Source: Macrostomum lignano | Lineage: Eukaryota | Length of the DNA: 64,000 bases | Direction: 5' to 3' | Assembly: GCA_002269645.1 (NCBI GenBank) | Contig: NIVC01000340.1 | Coordinates: 1 to 64,000, forward strand | In this document: positions 1-22,325 of the stretch, piece after piece | How positions within the stretch are numbered: position 1 is the stretch's first letter | How the letters are laid out: each line of letters opens with the position of its first letter | Translations under genes and position numbers: made by a program | Notes under the pieces: model-generated | Seen by the model: only the letters and a program-made list of their open reading frames with translations | Told to the model about the DNA's origin: nothing | Database searches by the model: none

Positions 1-602
1 ATCTACCTGTGAGCAAGAAGAAGCAAATGAACAAAGCCTGCAGAATTCAAGCCAGGTGACACCTGCCAAGTCACCTGCAAAGCGTCGGTTCTACCACCAC
101 CGTATCGAAGAAGTCGACTACATCGAATGCAGCGCCAGCCTCTATTGAACCGCCGCCCTAAAAAGCAAGTTCGAAAAACGCAGCGTGCAAAACAGCAAAA
201 CAATTCTGCCGAAGCTGGTGCAGATGGCACAGACTGGGTGGAGGCTCCACCAGCAAAGATCTTGGTGAGTACACCTGCTCTGGAACCAGGGTAGCGTCAA
301 GGAGACAGCATTTTAAAGCGTGCTGCTGCGGACGCTACTTACAGCTAGCGTGTCTTCATCGGACGACTCGTACAGCAGCTCTGATGATGAGTAACAAAAT
401 TTTTGACTAATTTTATCCAAGTTTTAACTAACTTATTCCACTATATTTATCAAATTTTGGCTAGGGAAATATTATTTTTTAGGGAAAAGCTCAAAACATT
501 TTTGCTACTCCTTGTACGCTAACCAGGTTTTGTAATTTAATATTAGAATTTACGATAGTATAGTCATGTTTAACTTTTCTTATTATTTATTTTCCGTTTT
601 AG

Positions 603-1160
603 CGACTTGTCCTATTAATAGTTACTGCGAGTCTGAAGCTGCACCCGTTTGAAAAATTTGATTTAAAGCAGACCAAACAGAAGCTACAGACCAGAAACCG
701 GTTTTGCAAACTATTCCTAAGCCGACCAACAATGCTAAAGACAATTTATTCAAATGCTAAAATCCAACTTTATCCAGCAGGAAAACTAACTATATATGGC
801 TGTAAATCAAATTCTCAGATAGTCTCAGTTTTACGATTTATCAACGACACTATTAATTGTGTAGATTTTGATTCAGTAAAAATTCAGAGCAGTACCTATG
901 TCGGCTTTATTGGTCATCTTTGGCCAAAATTCGGTTTCTCTAGTCTAAAAAGATATGCAGGCTACTATTCGAATTATCTGGTTGGATACGATGCAGAAAA
1001 TTTCCCACAAGCAGTTTCTGTTAGATCAGCATCAAAACCAAGGCTTTTTTGTAACATATTTTTTTCGAAAAAGTTTGTTATTATGGGCGTTCAAAACACT
1101 CATGAATTGAATAATATTCTTAACCATGTCAAGGATTTTTTAATCTCTGTTAATAACTAA
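603..1160 (+). CDS. Divergent TATA-binding-protein (TBP)-like protein, complete two-repeat core; the frame is open from 603, and a possible upstream exon lies at 127-264
   Basis: LIVTASL..KFDLKQ, KIQLYPAGKLTIYGCKS, KIQSSTY and YDAENFPQ..KPRLFCNIFFSKKFVIMG..ELNNILNHVKDFL align in order with TBP NIVSTVNL..KLDLK, ALIFSSGKMVCTGAKS, KIQNMVG and YEPELFPG..KPRIVLLIFVSGKVVLTG. An acceptor-like TTTTCCGTTTTAG ends at 602. Confidence 0.75.
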   Translation, partial: RLVLLIVTASLKLHPFEKFDLKQTKQKLQTRNRFCKLFLSRPTMLKTIYSNAKIQLYPAGKLTIYGCKSNSQIVSVLRFINDTINCVDFDSVKIQSSTYVGFIGHLWPKFGFSSLKRYAGYYSNYLVGYDAENFPQAVSVRSASKPRLFCNIFFSKKFVIMGVQNTHELNNILNHVKDFLISVNN

Positions 1161-1381
1161 ACTTAACAAGTAAACAATTGCTGTCAAATCGCAGTTGCGA
1201 TGCATTCTTTTACAAACATTTTGTCTTTTTTTATTTATTTACCAATTGTTTTCTCTAATAGTAAACGTGTCAGCTATACCTATAACTAACCAAATCATCT
1301 TTTCTTACAGCCGCAAATGACAAACCGGATCATCTATTAATATTATGCTCGATACGCTCGTTGTCGAGCTAGGTGCACACA

Positions 1382-2095
1382 ATGCCGCGTGCACAATGCC
1401 AAATCTGCAGAAAAAAGTTCAGTAATCAAGCCGAGCTGCATGCTCACTCGCATGGTGCTTGTTTTTCACCGCAACGATTACTGACCGGATCGCTGCAAAA
1501 CCTGATCGAAAACCCACCAGATGGGTGGTCCATCGCTTTGCGCGAGTCAGCTCATCGTGGTCGGGTAAATTTTGTCGAATTTACTCCCACTCTTGAACAA
1601 CAAGGCAACAGCTCTGGCGAGTTACTTCCTGGCGAGTTGATTGCGTCTTTAAGAGAACCAATATTTAAAATATTGGAAAAAATTGGCTCACCCAGTTTAT
1701 TAATAAGAGTCTGCTTTCACTTGAAAGTGACACTATTTCGACCGAAAACAGCAGCAGACGACAACGATGGCTCGAGCAGCGAAGAGATCATTTCGGTCTA
1801 TTTTAATACCAACATTGCGACAATATCATTTGATGAGACGATTGCAAACAGTGACATGCTGTTATCTCCCGAGGCCTACAATGACTGGTTCGCACGCGTT
1901 ATTAATCAGTTGTTAATAAAAATTGACAATTTTCAATCTCGAGGTAGTAATTGGCAATATAGAGCAATCGAGCAGCTAGACTTGATGCTCTGCGTTTATC
2001 GCAAAAGCCATGCAAGCACACTGTCAACAAATACGTCCCACGGTGGTGTGGGGGCGGGCGGCGGCAGTGGTGGTGGTGGCGGCGGTGGTGGTGGT

Positions 2096-2127
<32 letters not shown>

Positions 2128-2455
2128 GCGCGGGGAGTCCGGTCCAGTCCGGTCCGGTCCAGTCCGGTCCGGTCTGGTTAAGCAGCAATCGTTTAAAGTT
2201 CCAGTCTCAATCGGTCGCAAAGCTGGAGCAGTACTGCTTCTAAAGCCGCACAGAGCAGTTTAAAGCATCAAGACTATTTAAGAGTCTTACACAAGCGACA
2301 ACTTGTGTTTTCGCGCATACAGTCCATTCGTTCTCGAAAACAGAAAGTTTTTTTTGATGCAACAAAGAAAACTTGCACTAAGCTTCTTCGATACGAAGCG
2401 ATCCTGGACAAGTTCAATTAATTCGCTACCCTTTGGACACTGGCACTTGGCTAAT
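1382..2455 (+). pseudogene. Zinc-finger protein with the N-terminal signature of Polinton pPolB (GSxW ... DNxCF), disrupted and truncated
   Basis: N-terminal CQIC..F.....L..H finger; KIDNFQSRGSNW motif; in-frame DNLCF at 2297-2311 reached only after stops at 2261 and 2279; Gly/GGC run at about 2041-2130; no exonuclease or polymerase motifs follow. Confidence 0.5.
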
Positions 2456-2750
2456 TAATTAACAATATGCTCTGATCTCTTTTGTTGTACAAAGTAATAG
2501 CATGCTATAGAAGACTGTAACCCATCATTAATTTTTTCATTGATCATTATTTACAATAAATAAATGATACCGGCATTCGTTTAAATTATAATTTTAGCAC
2601 TTTTTTGTGTTTAATTATTTGAAAAAGTATATTTTTTATAGTTAGATTCTCAAGACTAAGCTTGTGTTTGTAGTAGACGTAAATGTAGTGCTATCGTTCA
2701 TGTTTCAAGAAAAAAAACTTTTTTTTAAACTTTCAGCTACAAGAATCGAC

Positions 2751-3233
2751 ATGAATCCCGAGCAGCAGCAGCAACAACAACTAACTGATCGTAAGCTTTT
2801 AGTTGAACGTCTATACGATTCGGCAACGATTCCGACCCGAAAAACTGTCGGGTCGATCGGGTATGATCTTTGCGCTGGCGTCGATGGTACCATTCCGGCC
2901 TACGAGTCCCGGAGTGTGCGAACCGGACTCAAAATTCGCTTACCGCCTGGTACCTATGGCAGGATAGCGGGACGTTCCAGCATGGCTCTGCACAGCTTAT
3001 TTGTTGGCGGTGGCGTAATCGACCCCGACTATACTGGTGAAATCTGTATAGTCTTGTTTAATTACAGTCCGGAAGACTTTGAGTACTATGCCGGGCTCAG
3101 TATTGCACAACTGGTTCTGGAGCAGGCCGTGCTTGCTTCAGTCTATGTGACTGAAGCAGACAATTCGATTCGGATGATTGAGCCGCCGACCAAGCGGCGC
3201 GGCTTTGGCGGCTTTGGCAGCACTGGCCAATAA
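2751..3233 (+). CDS. dut: Trimeric dUTPase (Maverick cargo)
   Basis: All five motifs present: GSIGYDL, GRIAGRSS, GVIDPDYTGEI, IAQLV, RGFGGFGSTG. ATG at 2751 lies 14 nt after an acceptor-like TTTCAG. Confidence 0.97.
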   Translation: MNPEQQQQQQLTDRKLLVERLYDSATIPTRKTVGSIGYDLCAGVDGTIPAYESRSVRTGLKIRLPPGTYGRIAGRSSMALHSLFVGGGVIDPDYTGEICIVLFNYSPEDFEYYAGLSIAQLVLEQAVLASVYVTEADNSIRMIEPPTKRRGFGGFGSTGQ

Positions 3234-3324
3234 GTATAATAATAATAATAAACTGATTTTTTTCTTTGGTGATTGGTGCACTATGCGAGAGCTTTGTAAA
3301 TACTATAAGCAATTTTAAAAATTT

Positions 3325-3768
3325 ATGCCTAAAATATATGTTGTAAAAATGTCTCCAGCGAAAGATCGAGGTTTTAAAAAGAAAAAGAAGAGCATTCGTA
3401 AAAAGAAGAAATCTATTAGAAAGATTAATAAAAAGCAACAAGGTTATGGTGTCGTAAATTGGTTAATTAATCATTTACCATTTGAAGCACATTTACCCGG
3501 CGGATATCAGTTTTGTGGTCCAGGTACGCAACTGCAAGCTAGGCTAGCAAAAGGACAACGAGGAATTAATCGGCTTGACAATTTGTGCATGCTTCACGAC
3601 GTGGCCTATGATAAAAATTCTGACGTGCAAGAGAGGTTAAAAGCTGATAAGCTATTAGAATCTGGTGCACGAGAGATTGCCCACGATCCGTCTACTGGTT
3701 GGAAAGAAAAACTAGCTGCGAAGTTGGTTACCAAGGTTATGCAAGTTAAGCAACGCTTTGGTGCTTGA
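3325..3768 (+). CDS. Parvovirus-type phospholipase A2 domain protein with basic N-terminus (adintovirus PLA2X-like)
   Basis: HLPGGYQFCGPGT calcium loop, LDNLCMLHDVAY catalytic HD, RLKAD Asp; Lys-rich N-terminal arm. Confidence 0.9.
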   Translation: MPKIYVVKMSPAKDRGFKKKKKSIRKKKKSIRKINKKQQGYGVVNWLINHLPFEAHLPGGYQFCGPGTQLQARLAKGQRGINRLDNLCMLHDVAYDKNSDVQERLKADKLLESGAREIAHDPSTGWKEKLAAKLVTKVMQVKQRFGA

Positions 3769-3770
3769 AA

Positions 3771-4460
3771 ATGCAGCAGCCATACAATATGCAACTAGCT
3801 CACGATTCTACATTTATTATTGCTGGACCTTCAAACTCGGGTAAAACTGAATGGACGTTGCGTTTGTTGACTGAACGAAAAGAATTATTTGATAAAAAAC
3901 CGTGCCGTCTTGTTTGGTGCCATGGATCAAGTTTGAAACCAGACGATCAACAACGAATTAGAACATGCTGGCAAAAAAGCGGTCTTGACCCTATTGTTTT
4001 TGTACCCGAATTCACACCACAGATGATTAATCGTTTTTTACCACACGATTTGGTTGTTGTTGACGACTTGCAAAGCGAGATTGCTAAGTTGCCAGAATTT
4101 ACTAGTATGTTTACAAAGCATGCGCATCATATCCCTTTGACTTGTCTGTACCTTTGTCAAGGTCTTTTTAACAAGTCTGATCCAGAAGCACGCATGCGAA
4201 GTTTATCAGCTAGTTATATTTGTCTAACTCGTAGTGTGCGCGATCGAACCACAGTTGAACATCTCGGTCGACAAATGTATCCGCGTAATAGTAGGTTTCT
4301 AGTGAATGTGTATGAAGACGCAACAAATAACAAACCTTTTTCATATTTATTCATTGACCTGCGGCAAGTGACACCAGATTTTTTACGATTGAGAACAGGA
4401 ATATTTTCTGGTGATGAACAAGTTGTCTATACTCGTGAATGTGATGCAAAGTTTGTGTAA
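3771..4460 (+). CDS. A32/FtsK-like genome-packaging ATPase
   Basis: Walker A GPSNSGKT, Walker B LVVVDDL, HHxxxTCLYLCQ motif, C-terminal PFSYLFIDL..RLRTGIF typical of Maverick ATPases. Confidence 0.93.
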   Translation: MQQPYNMQLAHDSTFIIAGPSNSGKTEWTLRLLTERKELFDKKPCRLVWCHGSSLKPDDQQRIRTCWQKSGLDPIVFVPEFTPQMINRFLPHDLVVVDDLQSEIAKLPEFTSMFTKHAHHIPLTCLYLCQGLFNKSDPEARMRSLSASYICLTRSVRDRTTVEHLGRQMYPRNSRFLVNVYEDATNNKPFSYLFIDLRQVTPDFLRLRTGIFSGDEQVVYTRECDAKFV

Positions 4461-4517
4461 TATTATTATAAGCAAATTATAAACTGTTGTCAATATTAGT
4501 TTGTGTTTTATTTCAAA

Positions 4518-5507
4518 ATGAGTTTTTACGTTTTTTTGCCGTCAAACGATATCAGTTACGAAACCAACTCGCCTAATGAATTTCGAGTGCGACTAACTGA
4601 ACCAATAAATTTATTGAACGGATTCTTCGAGGTTGCACTAGTTGAATTACTGTGCCATGGAGCAATTACGACGCCAAATGCTCATCGTGAGCGTCGATTT
4701 GAAGTTCCATATTTTGCGGACATTGACTCAATAATACGATTAAAGAAAAACTATTGGGGTCGTGTTTGGGCAGAGGCAGACTTGGATGCTTACGTTTCCT
4801 GGCAACCGTCTGGTACAGATGAAAAATTTGCCTGGCTTTTACGAAATTCAGGCGAAAAAACTATTGGATTAGAACTACCAGTTACATTTATGGACGCTTT
4901 CAAATTTGACTCTTGGAAGAAACTTTCTGGACTTGTCTCGGAAAAATTATCAAAACCTGCCGCTGGTAGTGTACAACCACCGGATGGTTCATACTTGGAT
5001 TTGATAAAAAGTCTCGACAATACTCTAGCGCTAGTACCTGAGAACTATTATGTTTTTTATTGTGTTCTATCGCCTGGTGAAGCTATACGACTTGTTTCGC
5101 ATGGAGACTATCTTCGAAAAACGGAAGGAGAAGTGTACATCAAAGTACACCAATATTGGTTGAGAAATCGTGTTTGGCGCATTAACAAAACCTACTTGGA
5201 TGCTGTGCTACCTTCTCCGATGCCTAGTAAAACGGTTTACATGTACTGTTACACAGATATAATCGAGTATCAAGCAGTGGGAAGTACATCAGTACCGTTG
5301 CTTCGAGTTGTGGAACTCCAACAAAAGAAAAACGGAGAACTTATACGCGATAGCAGTGCATTGCAAACACCCTACTACTTGAAAACAAATCGACAACAAA
5401 TTCACGAGATTTCGATTCGACTATCGGACCAGCGCGGAAAACCGTTTAATTTTGATCCGGGAGCACACGTTGTTGTCGTACTGCATTTTAAACATAGGTC
5501 GGACTAA
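4518..5507 (+). CDS. Minor capsid protein (penton, single jelly roll)
   Basis: N-terminal FYVFLPSN..N.PNEFRVRL..I.L..FEVALVE and C-terminal YCYTDIIE.Q.VG..VPLLRVV..YY..I.I.L.DQ.G..VVVLHFK match the Polinton mCP pattern. Confidence 0.85.
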   Translation: MSFYVFLPSNDISYETNSPNEFRVRLTEPINLLNGFFEVALVELLCHGAITTPNAHRERRFEVPYFADIDSIIRLKKNYWGRVWAEADLDAYVSWQPSGTDEKFAWLLRNSGEKTIGLELPVTFMDAFKFDSWKKLSGLVSEKLSKPAAGSVQPPDGSYLDLIKSLDNTLALVPENYYVFYCVLSPGEAIRLVSHGDYLRKTEGEVYIKVHQYWLRNRVWRINKTYLDAVLPSPMPSKTVYMYCYTDIIEYQAVGSTSVPLLRVVELQQKKNGELIRDSSALQTPYYLKTNRQQIHEISIRLSDQRGKPFNFDPGAHVVVVLHFKHRSD

Positions 5508-5563
5508 TTTATAAGCAAAGATTAATTGTGTAATAGAAAATTTTGTGAATTTGTTTTGTAAGA

Positions 5564-5992
5564 ATGAGCGAACTAACAGAAAAAGGAAAACAAAATGCTC
5601 GCTCATTGTGTCAGTGTGCTTTTTTACTACAAATTGTTTATCGGCTAAAGCATCCAAAGCAGAGAAAAAGTTTTTTACAAACACTTTCAGAGTCGGAGAT
5701 ACGATGTCTAGTAGACTTTCTGTTTAATATTATTAGTGGACGTATTAAAATTAGTAACTGTAACAAAAGACGACTTGAGAAGCATCGCAGATATATACGC
5801 CAGCTTTTGGAACAGAAGACTCCAATTACTGCAAAAAGGAAAATACTTGTCCAACACGGAGGATTTTTACCTTTTTTGGCTCCAATTATTGCCGCTCTAC
5901 CTGCTATAAGCACTGCGCTTGGGATAACGTCTGGAGTAGTTGGTACCGCCGCGGGAGCAGCGAATTTAATACGATCAATTCAACGAAAGTAG
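5564..5992 (+). CDS. Conserved Maverick core protein with adenovirus pX-like C-terminus
   Basis: Basic helical body, then QHGGFLPFLAPIIAALPAI..GAANL, resembling adenovirus pX (RGGILPLLIPLIAAAIGA). Confidence 0.6.
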   Translation: MSELTEKGKQNARSLCQCAFLLQIVYRLKHPKQRKSFLQTLSESEIRCLVDFLFNIISGRIKISNCNKRRLEKHRRYIRQLLEQKTPITAKRKILVQHGGFLPFLAPIIAALPAISTALGITSGVVGTAAGAANLIRSIQRK

Positions 5993-6002
5993 TAGGAATA
6001 TA

Positions 6003-6692
6003 ATGCGAACTAACGAGAGTAGTAGTTTTCAACGAATGTATCTAGTACCTGAATCTGTGTATCAATCTGCATGTCAAGGTGCAGAGCAAGGATCGTCACC
6101 AACTGCTGAGACACCTCGAAAAACTGAAGTTTTAGACGCACCGCAAGATGCTCTGGCAAAAAATATGGTGGAAATGAGAGACCAAATGGATAACTTGGAC
6201 AAGGAAATGGAAAAGGAGCCAAATTACACAGCTCAATTGAAACGAAGCAGATTGGAAGACAAACTTTTAAAATTGCGCAAAGTCTATCGCACTGGAGACG
6301 AGGACAATCTGTCACTTGTTCGCAAAGGGACTACTGTAAGAAGTTCATATGCCAGCGAATCAAGGGAAATTCCTAAAGTTTTTTTACCACGTTTCGAAGC
6401 TCTCGCTCAAAACCTATTTTCGGACATGGACAAGAATGCAGAACCAATGCTGGCTAATTTGACTGATGCCGAGATACAAGATCTCATGGAATATGTTGTT
6501 CGAGACAGACCGCTTAAGCGACACGAGACTCAACCGCCTAGTGGACTAAAAACATTTTTAGACTTTCTTCGAAAACGTGGAATCGCAGCAAACCAAATCG
6601 GGCGTCATGTACGAAACGAGCTAATGTCTGCTCCAAAAACTGTTGCAAAGGAGGATCTTAGTCTGTTTGAAAATTATCAAACACTGAATTAA
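6003..6692 (+). CDS. Uncharacterised Maverick protein
   Basis: Intact 229-aa ORF between the pX-like gene and integrase; RMYLVP N-terminus and DL..YV..PPSGLKTFLDFL..IG C-terminus resemble motifs I recall at this position in Mavericks. Confidence 0.5.
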   Translation: MRTNESSSFQRMYLVPESVYQSACQGAEQGSSPTAETPRKTEVLDAPQDALAKNMVEMRDQMDNLDKEMEKEPNYTAQLKRSRLEDKLLKLRKVYRTGDEDNLSLVRKGTTVRSSYASESREIPKVFLPRFEALAQNLFSDMDKNAEPMLANLTDAEIQDLMEYVVRDRPLKRHETQPPSGLKTFLDFLRKRGIAANQIGRHVRNELMSAPKTVAKEDLSLFENYQTLN

Positions 6693-6804
6693 GTTGTTTT
6701 AAAATTACAGATTACGTTTTAACAAAATTGATTCGAGCACTATAAGCTTTTTAAAAAGGTTAATTTTTTGTTTATGAAAAATATATAGTTTAATAAGACA
6801 AACC

Positions 6805-6993
6805 ATGTCATCTATCTTCCAAAAACTTTTGATTCGTCTCTGTGAGTTTTTTTGCATAAAATCTGAATGTGTGCCGTTTCTGGGAAAGGAGCACAACGAG
6901 GATACTGACGGAGATTCGATCGAGGCTTCGTTCTTTTGTTGCAACTGTCAAACGACTAGCATCAATCTAACTGATGATGAAGCGAGTGCGTAA
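6805..6993 (+). CDS. Small Cys-rich ORF of unknown function overlapping the integrase start
   Basis: 62 aa with an ATG start, an amphipathic Cys-containing N-terminus and a position in a compact gene row; no recognisable motif. Confidence 0.3.
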   Translation: MSSIFQKLLIRLCEFFCIKSECVPFLGKEHNEDTDGDSIEASFFCCNCQTTSINLTDDEASA

Positions 6994-8134
6994 GGAAATT
7001 GAAGAATTTTTGACGGATGCTTTTTTTAACTTGAACAGGCCTACTTCATTTAGTGGTAACAAGACTATACTTGTTCGTGAAGTACGTAAAAAGTTTCCAC
7101 AGATTACGAACAAAGTTGCAAAGCGCGAAGTTGATAATTGGGTGCGATCAACAAATGAGCATCATTTATTTCGAAAAACACGACGAAACTTTCCAACTCC
7201 AAAAATTAGTGTGCCACCAGTTGCAAAGTTTCAGTTTCAAATCGATTTGGCAGATTTACCTCAATACAAGACGGAAAATCGAGGTTATCGTTACATACTT
7301 GTTCTTATCGACTGTTTTACTAGAGTTGTACGACTAAGACCATTGCGTACAAAGAAGCCTTCAGAAGTTAGTCAAGTATTACTAGAGATTTTTCGAAGTG
7401 GTTTTAAGCCTGTTTATTTACAAGGTGATGCTGGTATGGAGTTTCTCGGAAGAGCTACACGTCAAATGCTGAAACAGGAAGGAGTTCGATTTTTTGTTAG
7501 CCAAAGCAATTACAAGGCAAGCATGGCTGAACGATTTATCCGCTCGTTAAAGGAACGTCTATTACGATACTTTCGAGCAAAAAATTTACCTCGATGGTTT
7601 GACATTTTACCGCAATTGGAAGATAATTTCAACTCTAGTCCTCATCGATCCTTGAGTGGAGAAACACCAAAACGGGTAGAGACAGACCCGCATTTACAAG
7701 GAATTTTGTGGGACAAAATGTTTGCGAAGTCGTACACTAAAAAGAATGAGAATAAATTTAAAGTTGGTGATTGGGTTAGAATTACACGACGTCGAGGAAC
7801 ATTTGAAAAAGGATACACTACGACTTGGAGTAATTCAAAATATCGCATTCATCGTGTACACTTGACAGACCCGCCAATGTACGAATTAGTGGACCCTGAA
7901 GATGGATTTGAAGTGCTGAAAGGAAGGTTTAACCAAGCGGAACTAATGTTGGTAAACGAGACAGATGAAACACCTAATGAAATTGAAAAAGTTATTGAAA
8001 CTGATCGAGCGAAAAATGGAAGTCGTCTGTATCTAGTAAAATGGAAAGGTATGCCAATCTCAAGAAGTCAGTGGTTAAACGAAAATGATCTTGACGCAAA
8101 GACTGCTAAACTATTTTCTAAAGTGTATAAGTAA
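6974..8134 (+). CDS. Retroviral-like (rve) DDE integrase with SH3-like and C-terminal chromodomain
   Basis: QIDLADL (D), LQGDAGMEF (D), KASMAERFIRSLK (E); FKVGDWVRI..FEKGY..WS; chromodomain EIEKVI..YLVKWKG....WLNENDL. Confidence 0.97.
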   Translation: MMKRVRKEIEEFLTDAFFNLNRPTSFSGNKTILVREVRKKFPQITNKVAKREVDNWVRSTNEHHLFRKTRRNFPTPKISVPPVAKFQFQIDLADLPQYKTENRGYRYILVLIDCFTRVVRLRPLRTKKPSEVSQVLLEIFRSGFKPVYLQGDAGMEFLGRATRQMLKQEGVRFFVSQSNYKASMAERFIRSLKERLLRYFRAKNLPRWFDILPQLEDNFNSSPHRSLSGETPKRVETDPHLQGILWDKMFAKSYTKKNENKFKVGDWVRITRRRGTFEKGYTTTWSNSKYRIHRVHLTDPPMYELVDPEDGFEVLKGRFNQAELMLVNETDETPNEIEKVIETDRAKNGSRLYLVKWKGMPISRSQWLNENDLDAKTAKLFSKVYK

Positions 8135-8175
8135 CACATGAATTGGGATTGCATGACGAAGAGAAGACTGTTGAA

Positions 8176-8634
8176 ATGGATCCTATTTTTGCTTTTTATT
8201 CTGGTCCGAATAGATCTGCTGAAGGTGGAGGTGGATATGGCATTCCTGTTTACGAAGGTTACGGTTTTTTGTCAAATTTGGCGGACAGATTGGTGTATCC
8301 TGTACTACGCAACGCAAAGAAAGATTTCTTGGATCGTGGTCTGGAGTATTTGAAAAGTGCGACAGCAAAAATTGGTATGGGTCGGAAGCGTCACTTGGAC
8401 ACAGAATCGAGCGAAGAGATGTTTAATACAACTGCAGTTTCGAGACCAAAGCGAAGGAAAAGAACCAGTGGAGTGGCTATAAGCTTAGGAAAGAAGAAAC
8501 GGCAAAAGAAACGACGAACAAGACAGTGTGGAAAGGGACGCGTGAACAAAAGAAAACGCAAGAAGACCGGTGGTATAGGAAAACGTCGAACTGCTACTGC
8601 AAGCAAGAAACTTTTTAGTCTGTTTGAAAAGTAG
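8176..8634 (+). CDS. Basic core-like protein (adenovirus pVII-like) upstream of MCP
   Basis: Gly-rich GGGGYG/EGYGF N-terminus followed by an amphipathic helix and a very Arg/Lys-rich C-terminal half; first ATG at 8176. Confidence 0.55.
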   Translation: MDPIFAFYSGPNRSAEGGGGYGIPVYEGYGFLSNLADRLVYPVLRNAKKDFLDRGLEYLKSATAKIGMGRKRHLDTESSEEMFNTTAVSRPKRRKRTSGVAISLGKKKRQKKRRTRQCGKGRVNKRKRKKTGGIGKRRTATASKKLFSLFEK

Positions 8635-8635
8635 C

Positions 8636-9958
8636 ATGAACCATTTGCTTGGACCTGATATTGCTGCTCTTAAAAGTGAATTGTCGCTATTTGATCAAAG
8701 TCCTGTTCAGTTTAGTGTTTTGGATAATCGATATACTAACATTCAACCGCAACATGGTATTACAAAAGGATCACCTATCGAATTTGAAGTTGTGCCTGCA
8801 GGCGATTTGTATTTGGATCTACAAGAAACTGTGCTCACGGTATGCTTCAGCGTTAGTGATAGTGAAGGTGAACCTATAGATGCAACGAAAAATTTTGTTT
8901 GTTTGAATAATTTGGTTATTGGAACATTGTTTGAGGACGTTCAATTTACTATTGGCGATACTGTAGTTGAAGGTGGTAGTTTTATGTATCCATACAAGGC
9001 TATGCTTCTTACATTACTGGAATATGGACATACAGCTCAGAAGGCTGGTTTACTGCCGTGGGGGTTTTACAAGGATACAGCTGGTAAAATGAATGCAACA
9101 AGTGAAAACGATGGACGAACAAAGAGGCAGGCGCTCATTGCTAACAATAGGCGGTGCACTGTATCGGGGCCGTTATTCTTGGATTTGTTTCGTCAGCCTC
9201 GGTATCTACTATCAAAGACACCACTACGGATCAAGCTCATACCGGCAAAAAGTAAATTTGTCCTGAGCGGGTCAACATTAGAAGCTGGTGCGGTTTTAAA
9301 AGACTATGAGATCAAGTTTTTGCGTGCAGAACTACGATTGCGGTTTGTTCAACCCTCGCCGAGTGTTATCAGTGCACATGCTCATGGACTTAAAAGTCAC
9401 AATGCATTATATCCGCACCGAAGTCTAAGCCTTGGTACGTTTACTATACCCCGAGGATCGTCTAGCCATACGCATGAAAATTTGTTTCCTAGTGGGGTAC
9501 CACGGCTTTTATTGATGGCAATCGTAAGCAACAAGGCATTCAATGGAAGCATGGACACAAATCCGTTCAACTTTGAGCATGCAAATGTGAGCAGCATTGG
9601 TGTGTTTGTGAATGGAGACTCGGTACCATCGCGTCCGCTGCAGACAAACTTTGGAGATGATTGTGTGACAGAGTATAATTTTTTGCTACAACAGCTTGGA
9701 ATCTATCTACAGGGACGAGATATTGGATTTAATATGCTGGATTACGCCAATGGTTACTCAATTTTTGCATTCAGTCTTGGAAGTGAACCTGGTGTCGGAC
9801 GGGGAGTGCAACTGTATAAGGAAGGAAATGTAAAACTAGAGTTACGCTTCAATGCTGCAACTAGTACCGTGTACAACGTCATATTTGGAGGTATATTTGA
9901 CAAGCAACTGCAACTGACTGAACTTCGCGACATTGTTCCTGGCACAGTATGGAAGTAA
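8636..9958 (+). CDS. Major capsid protein (double jelly roll)
   Basis: ELSLFDQSPVQ..PIEFEV...DLYLDL.ET, LFxDV, YPYKA, LF.QPRYL, NPFNF, FAFSL and GNVKLELRF motifs typical of Maverick MCP. Confidence 0.92.
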   Translation: MNHLLGPDIAALKSELSLFDQSPVQFSVLDNRYTNIQPQHGITKGSPIEFEVVPAGDLYLDLQETVLTVCFSVSDSEGEPIDATKNFVCLNNLVIGTLFEDVQFTIGDTVVEGGSFMYPYKAMLLTLLEYGHTAQKAGLLPWGFYKDTAGKMNATSENDGRTKRQALIANNRRCTVSGPLFLDLFRQPRYLLSKTPLRIKLIPAKSKFVLSGSTLEAGAVLKDYEIKFLRAELRLRFVQPSPSVISAHAHGLKSHNALYPHRSLSLGTFTIPRGSSSHTHENLFPSGVPRLLLMAIVSNKAFNGSMDTNPFNFEHANVSSIGVFVNGDSVPSRPLQTNFGDDCVTEYNFLLQQLGIYLQGRDIGFNMLDYANGYSIFAFSLGSEPGVGRGVQLYKEGNVKLELRFNAATSTVYNVIFGGIFDKQLQLTELRDIVPGTVWK

Positions 9959-10512
9959 TTGATTCTATCCTAGATCGTGGTGTAACAGATCGCTTCCTTC
10001 GCAATGTTGTATCGAAATTGTGCGCACATTTTTTAAATGTTGTATTTCTTGGTGTTTTTCCTCAAAACTTTGTTGGTGGACTTAGACGCTTACCTTTAGA
10101 CGGTAAAGACTATTTTTTTATCGTTAATACTGACGTCTCCAACCTGCCCGGAAAACATTGGGTATGCGTTTGGGTTTATGGTCATCGAGCAGGTCGCGGT
10201 AGCAAACGACTTGGTGAATATTTTGATTCTCTTGGTCTAGTACCATTGCCAAGAATAGCAAAATGGCTAGGAAAAGAATGTGGAAATTCGAAAAATTGGT
10301 GTTATAGTCGCTTTGCTATCCAAGACCCACAGAGTGGAAGTTGTGGATTTTGGGTAATTTTTTATATTTTTCATAAGTTGACTACCAGAGGAAACCTAGA
10401 GTGTTTTATTCGAAGCGTTTTTAAACGGAATATAATTCGCACTGGTTCGTTTCGATACTTGTATGCTAAATTACGCAATTTTGTTTTACGAGTGCTGCCT
10501 CAATATTTGTAA
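9949..10512 (+). CDS. Adenain-like cysteine maturation protease
   Basis: FLGVFP, IVNTD..PGKHWV (His), EYFDSLG (Asp), QDPQSGSCG (Gln/Cys). Confidence 0.93.
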   Translation: MEVIDSILDRGVTDRFLRNVVSKLCAHFLNVVFLGVFPQNFVGGLRRLPLDGKDYFFIVNTDVSNLPGKHWVCVWVYGHRAGRGSKRLGEYFDSLGLVPLPRIAKWLGKECGNSKNWCYSRFAIQDPQSGSCGFWVIFYIFHKLTTRGNLECFIRSVFKRNIIRTGSFRYLYAKLRNFVLRVLPQYL

Positions 10513-10841
10513 ACTCGCTAATTTGTGCGTCAAATTGTGTTTGTATCTAGTTGAAATATACAATACTGCTTGAAAAGAAGAATTTAAATGCGTTAAGTTA
10601 TACGCGAAATAAGCTTTGTGTCAAATTGAATTTTGGTTGGGCTTGTAATTAGCTGCATTCATTGCGGATAGAATTTAGGTGGATAGACAGGTGTTTGCGT
10701 AAAAGTGATTCAGCTAATTGGTTAATTCATTGCGTAAAAGCTAGTTTGCGTGCACGGCAAATTTCAGACTCTGCCATTTTTTTGGGCCTGTACTTACTAT
10801 GTATTTCGCCATAAGGAAATCGGCTTTGTGTCAAAAAAACG

Positions 10842-10850
10842 TATACTACT
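10842..10850. other. Right terminus of the Maverick (end of the terminal inverted repeat)
   Basis: TATACTACT abuts unrelated simple repeat; repeated TTGCGTAAAAG-like subterminal motifs at about 10695-10750. The TSD candidate CCCTCA cannot be checked because the left end is absent. Confidence 0.65.
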
Positions 10851-13443: not shown

Positions 13444-14632
13444 AATCATATATATGCTATTATATATATGCTCTATATGAGATAAAGCACGCTATTTTCC
13501 GGGCACTATTTTTAGGGCCCGAGAGCCCAAAAGGCTCACACCATGCTCTATGAGCGAACTTAAAGATAAAATTGCAAATGTACCGGTAGACGAAAAACTT
13601 TTACAGATTACCCGGTAAAAAAACATTGAATACTTTGAAAGCCATAGAAAGTAGCTAAAAACATAATAAACTCTCCAAGTACCAGCAACGCCAAGCATTG
13701 AGTACTTTAAAAGTCAATCCAAGTACAAAGTACCAGTGCTGACTTCGAAAGTTTTCAACGTTTTTCTATCGGGTAGGCGTGTCTTTGTCTAATTACATTT
13801 ATGATTTATGAAGTGTGCAGTATACTATTTGGTACTGATCGCGAGTCTCATGAATTATGTACATTTGAATTTTGAAAAATATTTTACCGTACTGTATACA
13901 ATTATTGCATTTTACTGCGTTACTTACTACATTACTACATTTTACTAAATCACTAAATTAAATTACTATACCAAGCTTATATGCACATTTTAATATATAA
14001 ATGTAAAAAAATTAGTGACCACCAATGCAATGCAGTACAGATTCCTAATTAAGGACAATTTAAACGCCTAAAATCATTAAAATATAAATGAAAAAATATA
14101 AAATTTCCATTCATATTATTATCTATATACCGTAAAACGCTACAAAAGTTATAGAACTTAAAACTTATTTAATTATATATAATATAACCTGTATGTAGGA
14201 ATTAACAAATTTAATTAGCAAATTCGTAAAGAATAGCGCATTAAGTACCACAAACGTTTCTGTTTCAAATATTACAATTACTTACTGAATAATACTAAGA
14301 CAAGTTTAAAAAAATTATAATAAATGCGCATGTAAATTAGGCAACATCTTGCAGTAAATCCGAAAAGTAGTAAGTTTAACAAAAATAAATTGCTTTTTTA
14401 TGTAGACTTTAAGTAAATATACAATCAGTTTATTATACAAACAAGAATTATATCTATTAACGACGTTTAAGTGTTTTTAAGAAACCTTCTTGCATAAATA
14501 TGCAATTAGGTGCGACTTTTAATTTCTTGTTTTTTTATCGTGTACGAAACTACGAGTAGCTATAAGAATAGAGTTTATAACTATTCATTTTTAGCAAAAG
14601 TACCAATTATCTACTGCAGAACTTCTTCGAAA

Positions 14633-15802
14633 ATGTTTTTCAGAAAGCAAAGCCTATTCTGCTTGCGGCGAAAAACGCTATTCATGTGCTGCATCGTCGT
14701 CTCTTCTTGCATAATACTTTTGATAAAAACTTTTCCATCAGACTGCTCTGGGGATTATGAATCTATCAGCGACCGCCTGGAGGAATTACAAGAGCCAGCG
14801 CAACTGAATGCACGCATTGAATCGAATTCATCGGAGTTTAATAAACAATATGCCGAACTCCTGCGGCTGCAAGACAGCTCAATGTTTTTCATTCAAAGAC
14901 GGACACGAATGCCTCTTATGCGCCTAGAGGATCAAGAACGTAACTTTAGCTACCGGGCGCAGATCGGTAGACAGTGGATGCTACGTAAGAACGTGGTTTT
15001 TGTGGCAACAGTGCAGAATGCCAGAGTACGCTTGCGGAAAAACATCGACAGCATGCACAGATTGGGAAAGCTATTCAACGACTACTGGCTGATTTTTGTC
15101 GAAAACGATTCAACCGATGGCACGCGCGAGTTGCTCCATGAAGTTCTTCAAAAAAACAACCAAACAGTGATTCTTGGGTGTCAGCCCATTAATTCAAGAG
15201 CGCCTTGCAAAATGAATATTAAATATCGGTCTGGTAAGCTTCACAGACCCGGATGGGGCCAGAAACGCACAGAGCAGGATCGTATAGATCGCGGTGTTGT
15301 AATGAGCGTTCTAAGAAACATGTACTTGGACTATATATACGACAACTTAAAGGAAACCGCGGATCTAGTCATTGTCACCGACCCGGATATTGAATGGAAA
15401 CCCTGGAGTTTAGATAATATCGCCCAGGGAATGTATTACTTTAGCGCCAAGCCGAAACTGGACATCCTGTGCGCTAATACCCGCCTCAACAACGACCTGT
15501 ATGACCCGTGCGCCCGCTCCTACTTCAGCAAGAAACGGTACACCAGCGTCACGGAATATGATCGCAGCATTATAACTGATAAAATTGCTACAGTCCAAAA
15601 CAGCATACCTGTCAAGGTTGAGTCTTGCTTCTCGGCTTTCGCCATCTATAGGGCTAGGAGTATTGCGACGAGCCGGCTGAGACACTACCCGGTGCCTGAG
15701 GAACGAAGCTGCGAGCACAACACGCTGGCAAGGCGGCTACAGGAGATCTACATTGACCCAGCCATGAAGCTGGTAATCAGGTCGCAGTTTGCTCACGCAT
15801 AG
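14633..15802 (+). CDS. Intronless type II membrane GT-A glycosyltransferase, CAP59/GT69-like
   Basis: N-terminal TM segment (LFMCCIVVSSCIILLI); IFVENDSTDGT, LRNMYLD, VTDPDI (DxD), LYDP, VESCFSAFAIY and CEH motifs. Confidence 0.75.
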   Translation: MFFRKQSLFCLRRKTLFMCCIVVSSCIILLIKTFPSDCSGDYESISDRLEELQEPAQLNARIESNSSEFNKQYAELLRLQDSSMFFIQRRTRMPLMRLEDQERNFSYRAQIGRQWMLRKNVVFVATVQNARVRLRKNIDSMHRLGKLFNDYWLIFVENDSTDGTRELLHEVLQKNNQTVILGCQPINSRAPCKMNIKYRSGKLHRPGWGQKRTEQDRIDRGVVMSVLRNMYLDYIYDNLKETADLVIVTDPDIEWKPWSLDNIAQGMYYFSAKPKLDILCANTRLNNDLYDPCARSYFSKKRYTSVTEYDRSIITDKIATVQNSIPVKVESCFSAFAIYRARSIATSRLRHYPVPEERSCEHNTLARRLQEIYIDPAMKLVIRSQFAHA

Positions 15803-17638: not shown

Positions 17639-17788
17639 TAGGAGTTTAGTTTACTGTAACCTGGGTTGTATTTTTATTTGTCAGCAGCTTGCGCGCCTCT
17701 TAGATCTATGCACTGTTAATCTGTCACTTTCTCTATCCCGGTCAATCTCTTAGTCTTTTCTCCCTGTTAAGTTGTCTTTCGAATCCCG

Positions 17789-18747
17789 ATGGCCAACGTT
17801 GACGACCTCATCAATGCGCTTACAGCTAGAGTGCAGAATAATTTGAACGTAGGGCAAAGAGTGCCCCGACCATCCAAGTTTGTGCTGAGTCAGGATTTTG
17901 CACTGTGGATGCAGCAGTTTACAGCGTATTGTGAGGCTGCAGAGATCCCTGAAGAAGACAGGAAGCAGCACCTAATTAGCCTGATGGACTTCAATACAGC
18001 TTATCGAGCTATTGCCAATCTTGAACTGCCGGACGATCTAGAGTTTGAAGATTTTGTTGAACGCCTTTCACAACGATTCAACCAGCATCACACCCCGCAA
18101 GACAGTAAGATCGAATTGAGGAGTCAGGACCAAAAGAAGGATGAGTCAGTGGAAAGCTATGCCGACGCCCTTCGCGAAATTGTCCGCCGGGCCTATCCGA
18201 ACCTGCCGGCAGATCAGAGAGATGAGTTGGCCAGGGACCGGTTCCCTCTAGGTGCTAGAATTGCCGATAGAGTTCGTGAGCACTTGCTACTGCAGGAGCC
18301 AGAGACCCTCGACGCAACTTGTAGGTGGGTAAGACAGAGTATGGCATCCCTCCGCACAGCTCAGGCAAGCACCGACAAGCCATGGCCATCAGTGAACTCG
18401 TCTGCACTACGCAAGATGAGACAGTCAGACTCCGCGAAAAACTGAAACAGCTGAGATTGGAGCTGCAGGCCTTGAAGGCTAGGCAGGGTGCAGGAGTCAG
18501 CCATCGTGAGCACCCAAATCCCCAACCTACCCAGGCCGCAGCACCGACTCATAGAGCTGTTCAGTGTGGTCGACGCTTTGGGACCAATCACGTGACCCGT
18601 CAGTGTAGGAACCCAATAGTGTGCAGCTACTGCAGAAGGCCGAACCACGTCAAAGCCAGGTGTCAGCAGCTAGCGAGGGATCAACAGATGGGAAACGAGA
18701 GAGGGACCTGGAGGCAGGGCCATCCAGGGTCCCAAGCCAGTCACTAG
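17789..18747 (+). pseudogene. gag: Gypsy gag, one internal frameshift near 18410
   Basis: Capsid-like W..QF..YC..RF..QK..ESVESYADALRE..AYP; zinc knuckles CGRRFGTNHVTRQC and CSYCRRPNHVKARC. Confidence 0.9.
18690..18733 (+). promoter_or_regulatory. Programmed -1 ribosomal frameshift signal (gag to pol)
   Basis: Slippery heptamer G GGA AAC in the gag phase; 6-nt spacer; stem GGGACCTGGA / TCCAGGGTCCC; the -1 frame is the protease frame. Confidence 0.75.
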
Positions 18748-21700
18748 TAGAGGCCCAACCCAGCGCACCGAGCCAGCCCGCCCATGAATCCAGTACAGAA
18801 CTCGGTTTTGTTGACATCCGCTTTTCCGAGAAAGCCAAGATCACGTGTTTGCTCGACACGGGTGCCAGTACACCCCTGTTGAGTGAGAGAGTTTGGAAAA
18901 ATAATCTGCCTAGATCCATGCTAGTGCCGAGTTCCATCGGACCAAACATTTAAGTTGCTAATGGTGATGCGATTGATGTGCTGGGCGAGTGCGTTGTGGA
19001 ATTTTTTATTGGCTCTCTAAAATTCAGTCACAAATTTACAATCGTCTCCAGTCTCTTGAATCCATGCATCCTCGGAGCAGATTTATTTCGTCGTCAAGCA
19101 GCTACGCTAGATTTTGCAAACTTTCAAGTCACCACATCGAACGGTACCTTCCAATTTCGGATGACAACTGAGCGACCTATTCTCTGCCGGATTGTCATCC
19201 CGAAATCGGTAACGGTCCCCAACAATAGATCCCAAATCATTCAGGCCAAATTAAGTCGAAAAGGTGTCCGGAATTTCCAGTTCACAGGAATAACAGAGAC
19301 TCGTTATCAGAATGAAGGATTAGTGTTATTGGCCAGAGCCATTGGCATCCCATCAGCTGAAGGATTTTTGCCGATTAAAGTAACCAACATCTTAGGCGAA
19401 CCAGTGACCCTGCCCAGAGGAAGGCAAGTTGGTTGGTTCACCCCTGTAAACGATAGCCAACCTCCTGCTCAGGAAGTGAAACCTGCAGCACAGGCTAACT
19501 TGGTTACCCTTGACACCAGTTGGGACCCAGTCAGTAATCTCGGCAGCTGGGAGTCAACAGATTTGACACCAGAGCAGCAAGGTTCATTCACTGAATTGAT
19601 TCGCCGAAATCGAGACGTTTTTGCAAAAGATGACAGTGAGTTAGGCGCCACTGATTTAGCAATGCACACCATTGACACCGGCTCAGCGAAGCCGACCCGC
19701 GAGCCCCGCGGCGCATCCCACTTCATCTGCGCCCGGAGATCGACAAGGAGATTGATAGTAGGACTCTAAATGACGTCACCGTTCCTGATCCTTTCCCTCC
19801 ACTTAGGATGGACGAGACGCTTGAAGCTCTATCAGGAAACGCTGTATTCTCCACTCTGGACCTAGCGTCAGGCTACCATCAGTGCCCCCTGGACCGTAGA
19901 GACCAGTTGAAGACAGCGTTTGTCATCCCAAACCGCGGTCAGTTCGCGTGGCGCTATGTTAGTTTTGGGCTGAAAAATGCCCCAGCCACATTTGTAAAGC
20001 TCATGAACCTAGTTATGACTGGCCTGTCATGGAAGGAGTGCCTTGTGTACTTTGATGACATTATAGTTTTTGCGAAGTCCTATGAAGAGCATTTTAAGAG
20101 ACTGCAGCACGTGTTCGACCGGTTCGACCGATTGCGAGCTGCAGGAATCCGTCTGAAAGCAAAGAAGTGCCATTTTCTGTCCAAAGAGGCAAAGTTTTTA
20201 GACCACGTAGTTTCAGCGGAAGGAATAGCTACAGATCCAGCGAAAACGAAAGAGATTAGCGATTGGCCTATTCCGAGTTGTGTCAAAGAGCTACAATCAT
20301 TCCTTGGTCTCTGTTCTTATTACAGAAATTTCATCCGTGATTTCTCGATCATAGCAGCTCCGCTGTACAAACTCCTGCGCCAGAACACCAAGTTCGAGTG
20401 GGGCCGGGAGCAGCAAGGAGCATTCTGTGAATTAAAGAGACTTCTGATTTCGACTGGAGTGATGGCTTACCCAGATTTTTCCGAAACAGCTGGACAGTAT
20501 GTGCTTGACACCGACGCGAGTTCCAAAATAGGAATTGGAGCTGTCCTGTCTCAGGTGCAAGCCGACGGCTCCGAAAAAGTGAGATTGTCTATGGGTCAAG
20601 GACCCTGACAGAGTGTGAAAAGAACTACTGTACGACTAGACTAGAACTTCTTGCGATCGTGCACTTCGTCAAGGCCTACAAATATTACCTCTTGGGGCGC
20701 AAATTTAAAATCCGAACAGATCACAGTGCGTTGTCATGGTTAACGAACCTCAAAGATGTGGAAGGACAGTGCGCTCGATGGCTAGAGACGCTACAGCGTT
20801 TTGAGTTTGAAATAGTTCACAGGAAAGGGATTTTTCACCAGAATGCGGACAGTGTCTCGTAAAGTTCGAAAGCATTGGGCCCAAGAGTCGTGCCCTTCCT
20901 GTAACAGTTCGCCACAAACACCTGAACAAGTGAACGCTGTGTTAGCATCACCTCTCAGCGTCAAGTGCATCAGAGAGGCTCAGAGAATTGACCCAGCTCT
21001 GAAACGAGTAAGGCAGTTACTTGAAGGTGAAGCGCTGCAAAATGAACCGATCAGTAGTTTAGTTGAGAGAGAGAGATCTGGGCCCATAGGACTCGAATAG
21101 TCTTAGAAGATGGGCTACTGCTCCTGACAGTGCCAGAGAACTCACAGAAGAGAATCCTCCTACCAAATTCCCTGTTAGAAGAAGCCGCCAAAATCCTTCA
21201 TGATGGCGTCAGTGGATGCCACCTCGGAGTTAAGAAGACTCAAGGAAAGTTTAAGCAACGCTTTTTGTGGCCTGGTCTGTCTCGTAGAGTTGAGGAGTGC
21301 TGCCGAACATGTCTAGTGTGCTCAAAGTGCAAACCATCGCCAAGAGGCAGGGCACCACTGCAACCCATCCCGAGCTCATTTCCGTTTCAAAGAATCATGT
21401 GCGACATCATTGGTCCTTTGCCGAAGTCCAAGCATGGGTCGAGATTTGTTTTGACAATCCAAGACGCATTCAGTAAATGGCCGTGTGCAATCCCGTTAGC
21501 AAATCAGCGTGCCAAAACAGTAGCCCGTGCAATCTTCACGCACTGGATTTCATCATTCGGTTGTCCACAGGAGATAGTCACTGATCAGGGATCAAATTTT
21601 GAGTCAGCATTGATGAAGAACCTTTGTTCTCTGCTAGACATCCGCAAGTGTCGAACCACTCCGTATCATCCGATGGCGGATGGGCAAGCAGAAAGCTTTA

Positions 21701-22325
21701 ATAGGACTCTAAAGCACATGTTAACGTGTCAGTTAGAGCAGGAGGACAAGGATTGGGAAGACTGCATTGCGCCCGGTTTGCTAGCCTATCGTTCTAGCGT
21801 GCATAGAGGCACAGGCTAGCACTACATTCTGTTTGGTAGGGAAATGCAGCTCCGATCGACATTGAGAATCCGACTGAGAGGGTGCCAGAGAGTTTCTCCA
21901 AGTTCACTCGTCGACTGACTGAAGACCTTCAGCAAGCACACGAGGCTGTGAGGGAGAATCTCAGAACCTATCAGAGGAAGCAAAAGAAGCTTTATGACAG
22001 CCAAGCTCGTGGCGCTCAGATCAATGAAGGTGATCTTGTTCTAGAATACGATCCCGTGATTAAACCGAATGAAATCCCGAAGTTCCACCGCTATTGGAAA
22101 GGCCCGGCCAAAGTCCTAAAAAAGTTTTCCGATGTCAATTACAGAATCCTGCACGATGGTGCGCGAAGGCCTAGGGTAGTCCATTTCAACAACCTAAGGA
22201 AAATCGATGCCAGCTCTAGGTCCCACGTTCCTGCTCAAAGGAGGACTCAGGCAACGGCGGGAACCAGGTCACGTGAGCGATATTCCCGCCCGGAAGCTCC
22301 TAATCCCCCAATGCCAGTTTTTTGA
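18697..22325 (+). pseudogene. pol: Gypsy pol (protease, RT, RNase H, integrase) with stops, frameshifts and an internal RT deletion
   Basis: LLDTGAS and ILGADLF (PR); FSTLDLASGY and YFDD (RT); LDTDAS and IRTDHSAL (RH); HHCC, DIIGP, TDQGSNF, AESFNRTLK and WKGP (IN). About 35 codons are missing between EIDKEID and LNDVT. Confidence 0.95.

Follow-up and report, generated by a model that had tools for sequence, protein, structure and literature searches.

A TBP-fold exon in a Maverick lineage of Macrostomum lignano as a candidate late-promoter factor

Introduction

At the start of one contig of Macrostomum lignano, a frame resembling a TATA-binding protein (TBP) lies on the same strand as a row of viral genes. 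Does this frame encode a TBP fold, does it belong to a Maverick/Polinton element or to the host, and what would such an element use it for? These questions were addressed computationally on a window of 64,000 nucleotides (contig NIVC01000340.1 of assembly GCA_002269645.1, positions 1 to 64,000, forward strand).

Giant viruses and herpesviruses are known to encode TBPs. Among Polinton-like elements, just one figure-legend label was found in the literature consulted, namely a TBP-like gene in the legend to Figure 5 of Starrett et al. 2021 (PMC8502044; preprint 10.1101/697771), for MELD viruses with an adintovirus-like PolB. The text consulted does not say which element carries it and leaves its sequence, spread, promoter and splicing unanalysed; one supplement that was searched gave no TBP match. 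TBP goes unmentioned in the main text of four recent Maverick/Polinton surveys.

Results

The frame encodes a TBP fold and is an exon

The stop-to-stop frame 603–1160 (+) is translated into 185 amino acids. Pfam family PF00352 matched it in two stretches (E 2.2e-7, 31 bits, cut-off 22.9), and its best PDB sequence matches were TBPs. An AlphaFold2 model, built on a 15-row alignment, had a pLDDT of 95.3 and a pTM of 0.81 and contained the strand/helix order of TBP twice. When this model was compared with the PDB by Foldseek, 47 matches were obtained at E <=0.001; among ranks 1–44, the rows listed were TBP-containing entries (E 1e-9 to 2e-6, TM about 0.7). Giant-virus TBP-like proteins were the top matches in a library of viral structures (BFVD). 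In the ESM Atlas, TBP clusters scored 0.95–0.96, with a recognition value below the Atlas threshold. Judged by its predicted structure, the product is a TBP-fold domain with two saddle repeats. The complete two-lobed core that an initial annotation had described was thus borne out by PF00352, the model and Foldseek, the searches proposed there having returned a TBP fold.

The same annotation had noted that the frame is open from position 603 and longer than the listed open reading frame. The 185-aa frame is indeed present, but its start is a splice acceptor. A pyrimidine tract and AG, in phase 0, abut the first Arg codon in 6/6 subfamilies of the element, and the first ATG comes no earlier than codon 44. 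Hence, the frame is counted as an exon.

The exon belongs to a Maverick element and is conserved

The window begins at the first base of its contig, and the left end of the element is not within it. Downstream of the exon follow a polymerase remnant, dUTPase, PLA2-like gene, ATPase, minor capsid gene, pX-like gene, integrase with chromodomain, major capsid gene, protease and a terminal repeat reaching to 10850 (Table 1). In other copies the left terminal repeat was found 4.5–6.2 kb upstream of the TBP exon. In the copy on contig C877 the exon lies between both terminal repeats, and the element is flanked by a 6-bp target duplication; the copy on contig C84 is without such a duplication. The gene therefore sits inside the element, as had been proposed, and not beyond its left repeat. 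The Maverick characters found were terminal inverted repeats, the 6-bp duplication (C877), a retroviral-type integrase, and capsid, ATPase and protease genes. The capsid and ATPase names are presumed, and the order shared by 25 of 30 metagenome loci supports them.

Table 1. Features of the element, in window positions
Feature	Position	Strand	Remarks
3' part of exon 2 of upstream gene	1..394	+	Basic linker, acidic tail; small indels in this copy; possible viral ssDNA-binding protein
Predicted alternative 5' splice donor, phase 0	265..270	+	At L|VS codons of upstream gene
Predicted alternative intron, 338 nt	265..602	+	Unspliced, upstream protein ends with acidic tail
Polypyrimidine tract and AG acceptor, phase 0	586..602	+	Kept in 6/6 subfamilies
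TBP-like exon	603..1160	+	185 codons, complete two-lobed core; PF00352, AlphaFold model, Foldseek
N-terminal remnant of protein-primed DNA polymerase gene	1373..2263	+	45% identical to start of 1272-codon frame of a sister family; polymerase name presumed from motifs
dUTPase	2646..3233	+	PF00692, E 2e-29
TATAAG box before PLA2-like gene	3304..3309	+	Motif scan
PLA2-like virion gene	3319..3768	+	PF08398, E 3.6e-9
Packaging ATPase (presumed)	3750..4460	+	Name from Walker motifs and the Maverick gene set; no Pfam match above cut-off; in this copy TATAAG is absent within 200 nt
TATAAG box before minor capsid gene	4467..4472	+	Motif scan
Minor capsid protein (presumed)	4500..5507	+	No Pfam match
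TATAAG box before pX-like core gene	5510..5515	+	Motif scan
Adenovirus pX-like core gene	5549..5992	+	PF05829, E 2.5e-6; TATAAG at 5905 inside, before next gene
Conserved 240-codon Maverick gene	5970..6692	+	–
TATAAG box before short frame and integrase	6741..6746	+	Motif scan
Retroviral-type integrase with chromodomain	6971..8134	+	PF00665, PF00385; TATAAG at 8126 overlaps last codons
Basic core-like gene	8131..8634	+	TATAAG at 8478 inside, before major capsid gene
Major capsid protein (presumed)	8579..9958	+	No Pfam match; TATAAG at 9815 inside, before protease
Adenovirus-type maturation protease	9922..10512	+	Weak PF00770 match below cut-off, E 0.043
Right terminal inverted repeat, about 104 bp	10747..10850	.	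Matching left repeat present in other copies

When the genome was searched with the exon, 83 matches were obtained, 22 of them identical and full length; these counts are possibly inflated by duplicated haplotypes, the host TBP itself being present three times. Synteny was examined across related Mavericks, as the annotation had suggested, and the order upstream gene, TBP exon, (kinase), polymerase is kept in six subfamilies at 39–46% identity. The exon is an open frame in all six. Among the distant pairs, only subfamilies B and C had a moderate dS (the others being saturated or above 2.5); their dN was 0.217 against a dS of 1.45. By these codon comparisons the exon is under purifying selection across this Maverick lineage.

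The polymerase of the window's subfamily consists of the N-terminal part only, whereas long frames are present in sister families. In the subfamily with the most identical copies the polymerase body is gone (window 1373–2700), while TBP exon, capsid and integrase are intact. The window's subfamily is likely to be a recently spread non-autonomous form. In five sister subfamilies (L025, L027, L029, L032, L034) a deoxynucleoside kinase gene (PF01712) directly follows the TBP exon; in subfamily F the kinase and the exon share a reading frame and a TBP-kinase read-through is predicted, and the window's subfamily has no kinase. It may be noted that, outside the element, the window holds a 430-codon intronless glycosyltransferase-like frame (14510–15802; weak CAP59 and GT2 matches, under cut-off) and a frameshifted LTR-retrotransposon gag-pol set (17771–22325), with protease, reverse transcriptase and integrase motifs recognized by eye.

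TBP-like genes are widespread in Mavericks

A Pfam search of the genome, in which 150 of 330 candidates were scored, returned the host TBP, a TRF2-like gene and more than 100 multi-copy matches. Of 20 stretches taken around the latter, 16 carried either polymerase/ATPase genes belonging to a distant Maverick lineage or some other gene typical of Mavericks. TBP-like frames were also present in further capsid-defined families (8 frames in 10 loci pairs), and each of four Maverick lineages in this genome has a TBP-like gene. When 1.84 billion representatives were searched with a profile, 144 matches resulted, 4 of them close; about 45 share Y-x-G-R-P-x-M-L where the first Phe stirrup would be. 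The Polinton-clade proteins span dozens of 50%-identity clusters. Thirty metagenome loci, several of them near-copies, were fetched using a 13-row subset; a Maverick hallmark gene (E <=1e-5) was found at 25, and the remaining 5 loci are 1.4–4.6 kb long. In these relatives the TBP-like gene has its own Met and adjoins a protease or PLA2 gene, not an ssDNA-binding (SSB) protein gene. The annotation had treated TBP as unusual Maverick cargo; it is element-borne, but it is no one-off, since such genes are common in Mavericks. These dozens of clusters, together with four lineages in one genome, suggest that the standard Maverick gene list misses a common gene.

In a tree of 62 rows, a branch with 99/94 support placed the query, its subfamilies, the metagenome proteins and the fourth lineage apart from host TBP and TRF2, and host TRF2 fell with cellular TBPs, far from the query. 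A clade of the query group with host TBP was rejected (p-AU 0.0008, in a test with long branches and a group chosen after the first tree). Host TBP matched the query with an HH probability of 96.7, and the Polinton-clade profile matched far more strongly (E 7e-22). The phylogeny that the annotation had called for thus puts the gene in a Polinton clade. Together with the TBP-like genes of four Maverick lineages in this genome, it speaks against the ordinary host paralogue that had been named as the alternative.

The other lineages show features of their own. In those numbered 2 and 3 (L072–L090, L155, L166), the TBP-like genes bring a start codon of their own and share a Y-P-x-G turn, and the lineage 2 genes keep the basic helix. 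The separate branch of these two lineages may mean that TBP entered Mavericks more than once. The frame of lineage 4 (L153, L157, L159, L163, L167, L171) is shorter and very divergent and, by eye, is without both second Phe. Genes that, judged by a motif, resemble the coactivator PC4 occur in other Maverick lineages (L124:5573-6232, L128:5630-6355, L115:1313-2558, L097:197-1244), and in metagenome elements a PC4-like gene stands directly upstream of the TBP-like gene; those scanned had no Pfam or PHROG match.

Repeat 2 is conserved and repeat 1 is altered

Residue correspondences were taken from an alignment with host TBP, and invariance from the lineage alignment. The exon is about 21% identical to host TBP and 15% to host TRF2. 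Repeat 2 retains F134, P135 and F153, all invariant in the lineage, so that the annotated retention of both intercalating Phe holds. In repeat 1, Y57 occupies the second Phe place, Y57-P58 replacing Phe-Ser, and position 57 is invariably aromatic; the DNA face bears Q55 and T63, and the stirrup is without Phe. By the four-Phe test of a canonical TBP, F134 and F153 are kept, Y57 stands for one, and the first repeat-1 place has no Phe. That place depends on the aligner, being S40 in one alignment and the F38 region in another. In the strand register of the model the repeat-1 stirrup is two residues shorter, P42 matches P135 and R41 stands at the Phe place; residue 41 is Arg or Lys in 6/6 subfamilies. 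The lost Phe was probably replaced, as the model has it, by Arg41 rather than Pro. The annotation had assigned Pro and Tyr to the two repeat-1 sites: the loss of Phe and the Tyr stand, while the Pro is probably one residue off.

The Asn and Thr pairs of yeast TBP contact bases in DNA. Part of this is given in PMC12529657. In the exon the corresponding places hold L4, S96, Y65 and M161, both Asn and both Thr being replaced, in agreement with the annotation.

On the TFIIB side, the acidic pair D130 and E132 of the C-terminal stirrup was invariant in 9/9 rows, and E132 was present in 15/15 rows once two further lineages were added. According to passages of PMC7221094, TFIIB is bound at these acidic positions, their conservation among viral TBPs is only about 40%, and most such viruses bring a TFIIB of their own. 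A search of 64 element loci with one host TFIIB fragment gave no TFIIB-like match, and neither did Pfam among 14 window frames. On the regulator side, the helix-2 segment has 1–3 Lys/Arg in 5/6 subfamilies (2 in the window copy) compared with 7 in host TBP, and the basic N-lobe patch is retained in just 1/6. This patch is the contact site of TFIIA, TAF1, Mot1 and Brf in passages of the same source (PMC7221094).

A TATAAG box precedes the virion genes

The annotation had asked for a shared motif upstream of capsid genes, and a scan revealed TATAAG(CAA). In the window's element TATAAG occurs 8 times in the sense orientation, each time before a gene of the virion/integrase block, and once in antisense. 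It ranked first among all 6-mers: of the 33 windows taken upstream of virion genes, 22 contain it, against a mean of 1.39 and a maximum of 5 over 200 shuffles. These windows represent six subfamilies at seven loci, after omission of a near-copy and a rearranged locus; the subfamilies share ancestry, so the 22 box-bearing windows are not independent. Over 17 loci, near-copies included, 84 sense sites were counted against 6 antisense ones, and 46 distinct sites extend the box to TATAAG-C-A-A. The intergenic boxes lie mostly 45–60 nt upstream of the start. Two boxes overlap conserved codons (the integrase end and Leu-Tyr-Lys of the capsid) and could be held by protein sequence instead. The Foldseek listing includes a wild-type TBP structure on the G(-26) TATA variant, which is presumably the TATAAG box.

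The box was found before dUTPase in four subfamilies, but in 0/5 windows before the TBP exon and polymerase. In metagenome Polintons with a TBP of the same clade, TATAAG was present in 3/29 windows (shuffles 1.9), which is not an enrichment, and no other 6-mer survived correction there. Therefore, the protein and the box do not travel together everywhere. Nor is the box generic to every Maverick of this host, since a second lineage, read by eye, has no TATAAG before its virion genes.

The exon may be spliced to the upstream gene

A GTRAGY donor in phase 0 is present at L|VS near the end of the upstream gene in 6/6 subfamilies, 260–620 nt before the acceptor. Other Val-Ser pairs of the same frames had GTRAGY codons in 0/8 cases, and the chance of finding it in 6/6 from codon usage is about 4e-5, if independent. 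Donor and acceptor were both intact in 19/19 near-identical copies checked. From this pairing of a conserved phase-0 donor with a phase-0 acceptor we predict alternative splicing, giving either the upstream protein with its acidic tail or a phase-0 fusion to the TBP core. The leads of the upstream gene in the ESM Atlas were DUF2738, DUF5871 and Pox_I3, all below 0.9; its domain is possibly a viral ssDNA-binding protein of the DUF2738/poxvirus I3 type.

Contigs of four sequencing runs, presumed to be RNA, had two GT-AG joints in the left arm, of which the first intron of the upstream gene was seen in 3/4 runs. Contigs cover the TBP exon, and none of those from the four runs lists a joint into it; those from runs X1, X4 and X6 pass unspliced through the donor or the acceptor. 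The other joint (751 to 1102, 4/4 runs) belongs to a spliced gene near the left terminal repeat (L041:600-1612), the exon-2 frame of which had no Pfam match. In the same copy a short degenerate repeat array upstream of the possible SSB gene (L041:3450-4200) might have a regulatory function. Tracts that resemble acceptors, with CAG at the end, precede the polymerase remnant and dUTPase genes (window 1300–1318 and 2725–2736), as expected for spliced or trans-spliced left-arm transcripts.

A stand-alone TBP of 186 residues could also arise, alongside the cis fusion, if a host leader with a terminal AUG were trans-spliced to the phase-0 acceptor. We consider this possible but doubtful. The published spliced leader has 35 nt and ends in ATG (PMC8629364, passages), and in flatworms translation can begin at a leader AUG (PMC9851317, passages). 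The 3'-most 21 nt of the published leader occur at 61 places in the genome, and a GTAAG donor follows the leader exon in 2/2 tandem copies read, in contrast to 0/3 dispersed copies; the latter (L144–L146) resemble processed, leader-bearing insertions. Phase 0 sets the leader AUG in frame with the exon in 6/6 subfamilies. However, trans-splicing leaves the conserved cis donor unexplained, and according to passages of PMC8629364 it prevails where the acceptor has no upstream cis donor, whereas the TBP acceptor has a predicted one.

Discussion

The box keeps a 5' TATA and has a changed 3' half, while the protein keeps repeat 2 and has a changed repeat 1. Cellular TBP uses repeat 2 to contact both the 5' TATA half and TFIIB. 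This correspondence suggests a late-promoter factor, and on balance we think it probable that the TBP-fold domain binds TATAAG(CAA) and recruits host TFIIB and Pol II. The proposed target would be the late-box DNA TATAAGCA. Repeat 2 retains its two Phe, the Pro that follows the first of them and its acidic stirrup; we would expect it to recognize the 5' TATA half, which is unaltered, and to be the docking site of TFIIB. A preference for T as the first base of the box is ascribed to the conserved Pro (PMC12529657, passages). For repeat 1, in which the stirrup is shorter, Arg probably takes the place of Phe, the DNA face is polar and the basic helix is missing, the expected target is the altered 3' half (AGCA), and host TBP regulators would be avoided. 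Herpesvirus TBP mimics, which drive late genes from TATT boxes (PMC12529657, passages), serve as an analogy. A promoter-specificity factor had been expected from the annotation as a non-TATA, TRF2-like protein; a matching box before the virion genes agrees with the role, but the box is TATA-like and the protein stands apart from TRF2 and TBP. With all Asn and Thr lost, binding could also be weak or not sequence-specific.

The TBP domain would be made mostly as a fusion to the upstream gene's product. If the upstream domain binds ssDNA, the fusion would, speculatively, tie late transcription to genomes replicating by strand displacement. More generally, many animal Mavericks might have a one-gene late switch, a half-rewired TBP acting with host TFIIB on a private TATA variant, here splice-fused to a viral SSB so that one gene gives SSB and SSB-TBP and capsid genes come on only in replicating genomes. 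We put this wider picture forward tentatively.

The candidate promoter role has to be weighed against other uses of the fold. Host TBP may read TATAAG itself, with the viral fold reused for replication or genome handling, as in bending of the terminal repeats or as a tether for the ssDNA-binding domain. The place of the exon in the replication arm, between the possible SSB gene, the nucleoside kinase (PF01712, in sister families) and the polymerase, would suit such a reuse, as would the predicted fusion to the possible SSB gene, the clade relatives that are without the box and the missing Asn/Thr pairs. We find it unlikely all the same, for the invariant acidic TFIIB pair would be superfluous for replication, and metagenome relatives, with a Met of their own, stand beside protease or PLA2 rather than SSB genes. 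A decoy would need those acids: bound to TFIIB (or Brf1) through the kept stirrup, it would dampen host transcription without reading a promoter, and the loss of one Phe and four polar DNA contacts would be no hindrance. However, F134, P135, F153 and the aromatic 57 are invariant, as expected if DNA intercalation matters, and a strong shared box lies upstream of the virion genes; this role seems quite improbable to us. The annotation had considered a dominant-negative for TFIIA, TFIIB and TAFs. The TFIIA/TAF version is weakened by the loss of the repeat-1 basic helix in 5/6 subfamilies, and with the TFIIA/TAF1/Mot1 patch gone these factors are unlikely targets, so that a TFIIB decoy alone is possible.

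Two further explanations concern the origin of the box and of the gene. TAAG, contained in the box, is the baculovirus late core, and the box might thus be the late promoter of a helper DNA virus, the TBP-like protein being incidental; virophages and certain Polinton-like viruses reportedly have promoter motifs in common with the helper viruses. Spliceosomal introns in the left-arm genes point instead to nuclear host Pol II, and a spacing of 45–60 nt is what a TATA box followed by a short leader would give, which makes a helper's promoter very improbable. We know of no helper virus for this element. That the exon is an ordinary or decaying host TBP paralogue, recently captured, is hardly credible: host TBP is a clear homologue by its HH probability, but a recent capture is contradicted by the dN/dS, by the stronger Polinton-clade profile match and by the p-AU value, at an identity of about 21%.

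The late-promoter factor proposed here can be set beside known systems. It shares with cellular TBP and TRF2/TBPL1 (PF00352; PDB 1cdw, 1ytb) the saddle (TM about 0.7), the repeat-2 Phe/Pro/Phe and the acidic TFIIB stirrup. It differs in its roughly 20% identity, its shorter stirrup without the first repeat-1 Phe, the replaced Asn/Thr and the lost basic helix 2, and in being borne by a mobile element in a separate clade. Passages of PMC12529657 describe beta/gamma-herpesvirus TBP mimics such as KSHV ORF24, which are alike in the viral TBP fold, the polar DNA face, a non-canonical TATA-like late box and the use of host Pol II. ORF24 keeps four Phe, is without the TFIIB acids and works in a six-protein complex, whereas the Maverick protein keeps the acids and has lost one Phe, and no herpesvirus-type complex partners were found among the element frames scanned. 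Giant-virus TBPs (PMC7221094, passages) are likewise divergent viral folds that have lost the N-lobe regulator signature, but in giant viruses the acidic pair varies and TFIIB is mostly encoded by the virus itself, while no TFIIB was found in this Maverick of about 15–20 kb. The element itself shares with Mavericks, Polintons and adintoviruses the terminal repeats, 6-bp duplication, integrase, PLA2-like and pX-like genes, protease, capsid and ATPase, and the window's subfamily differs from a typical Maverick in that most of the polymerase is absent.

How a Maverick switches from quiet insertion to capsid making is the question to which a small factor and a box of 6–9 bp would speak. Unlike the TBPs of herpesviruses and giant viruses, the Maverick protein appears to be built for host TFIIB. 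With one lobe conserved and the other rewired, this protein would be a natural experiment on how the lobes of a TBP read the two halves of TATA. If the proposal is true, it would be the smallest known viral late-transcription device.
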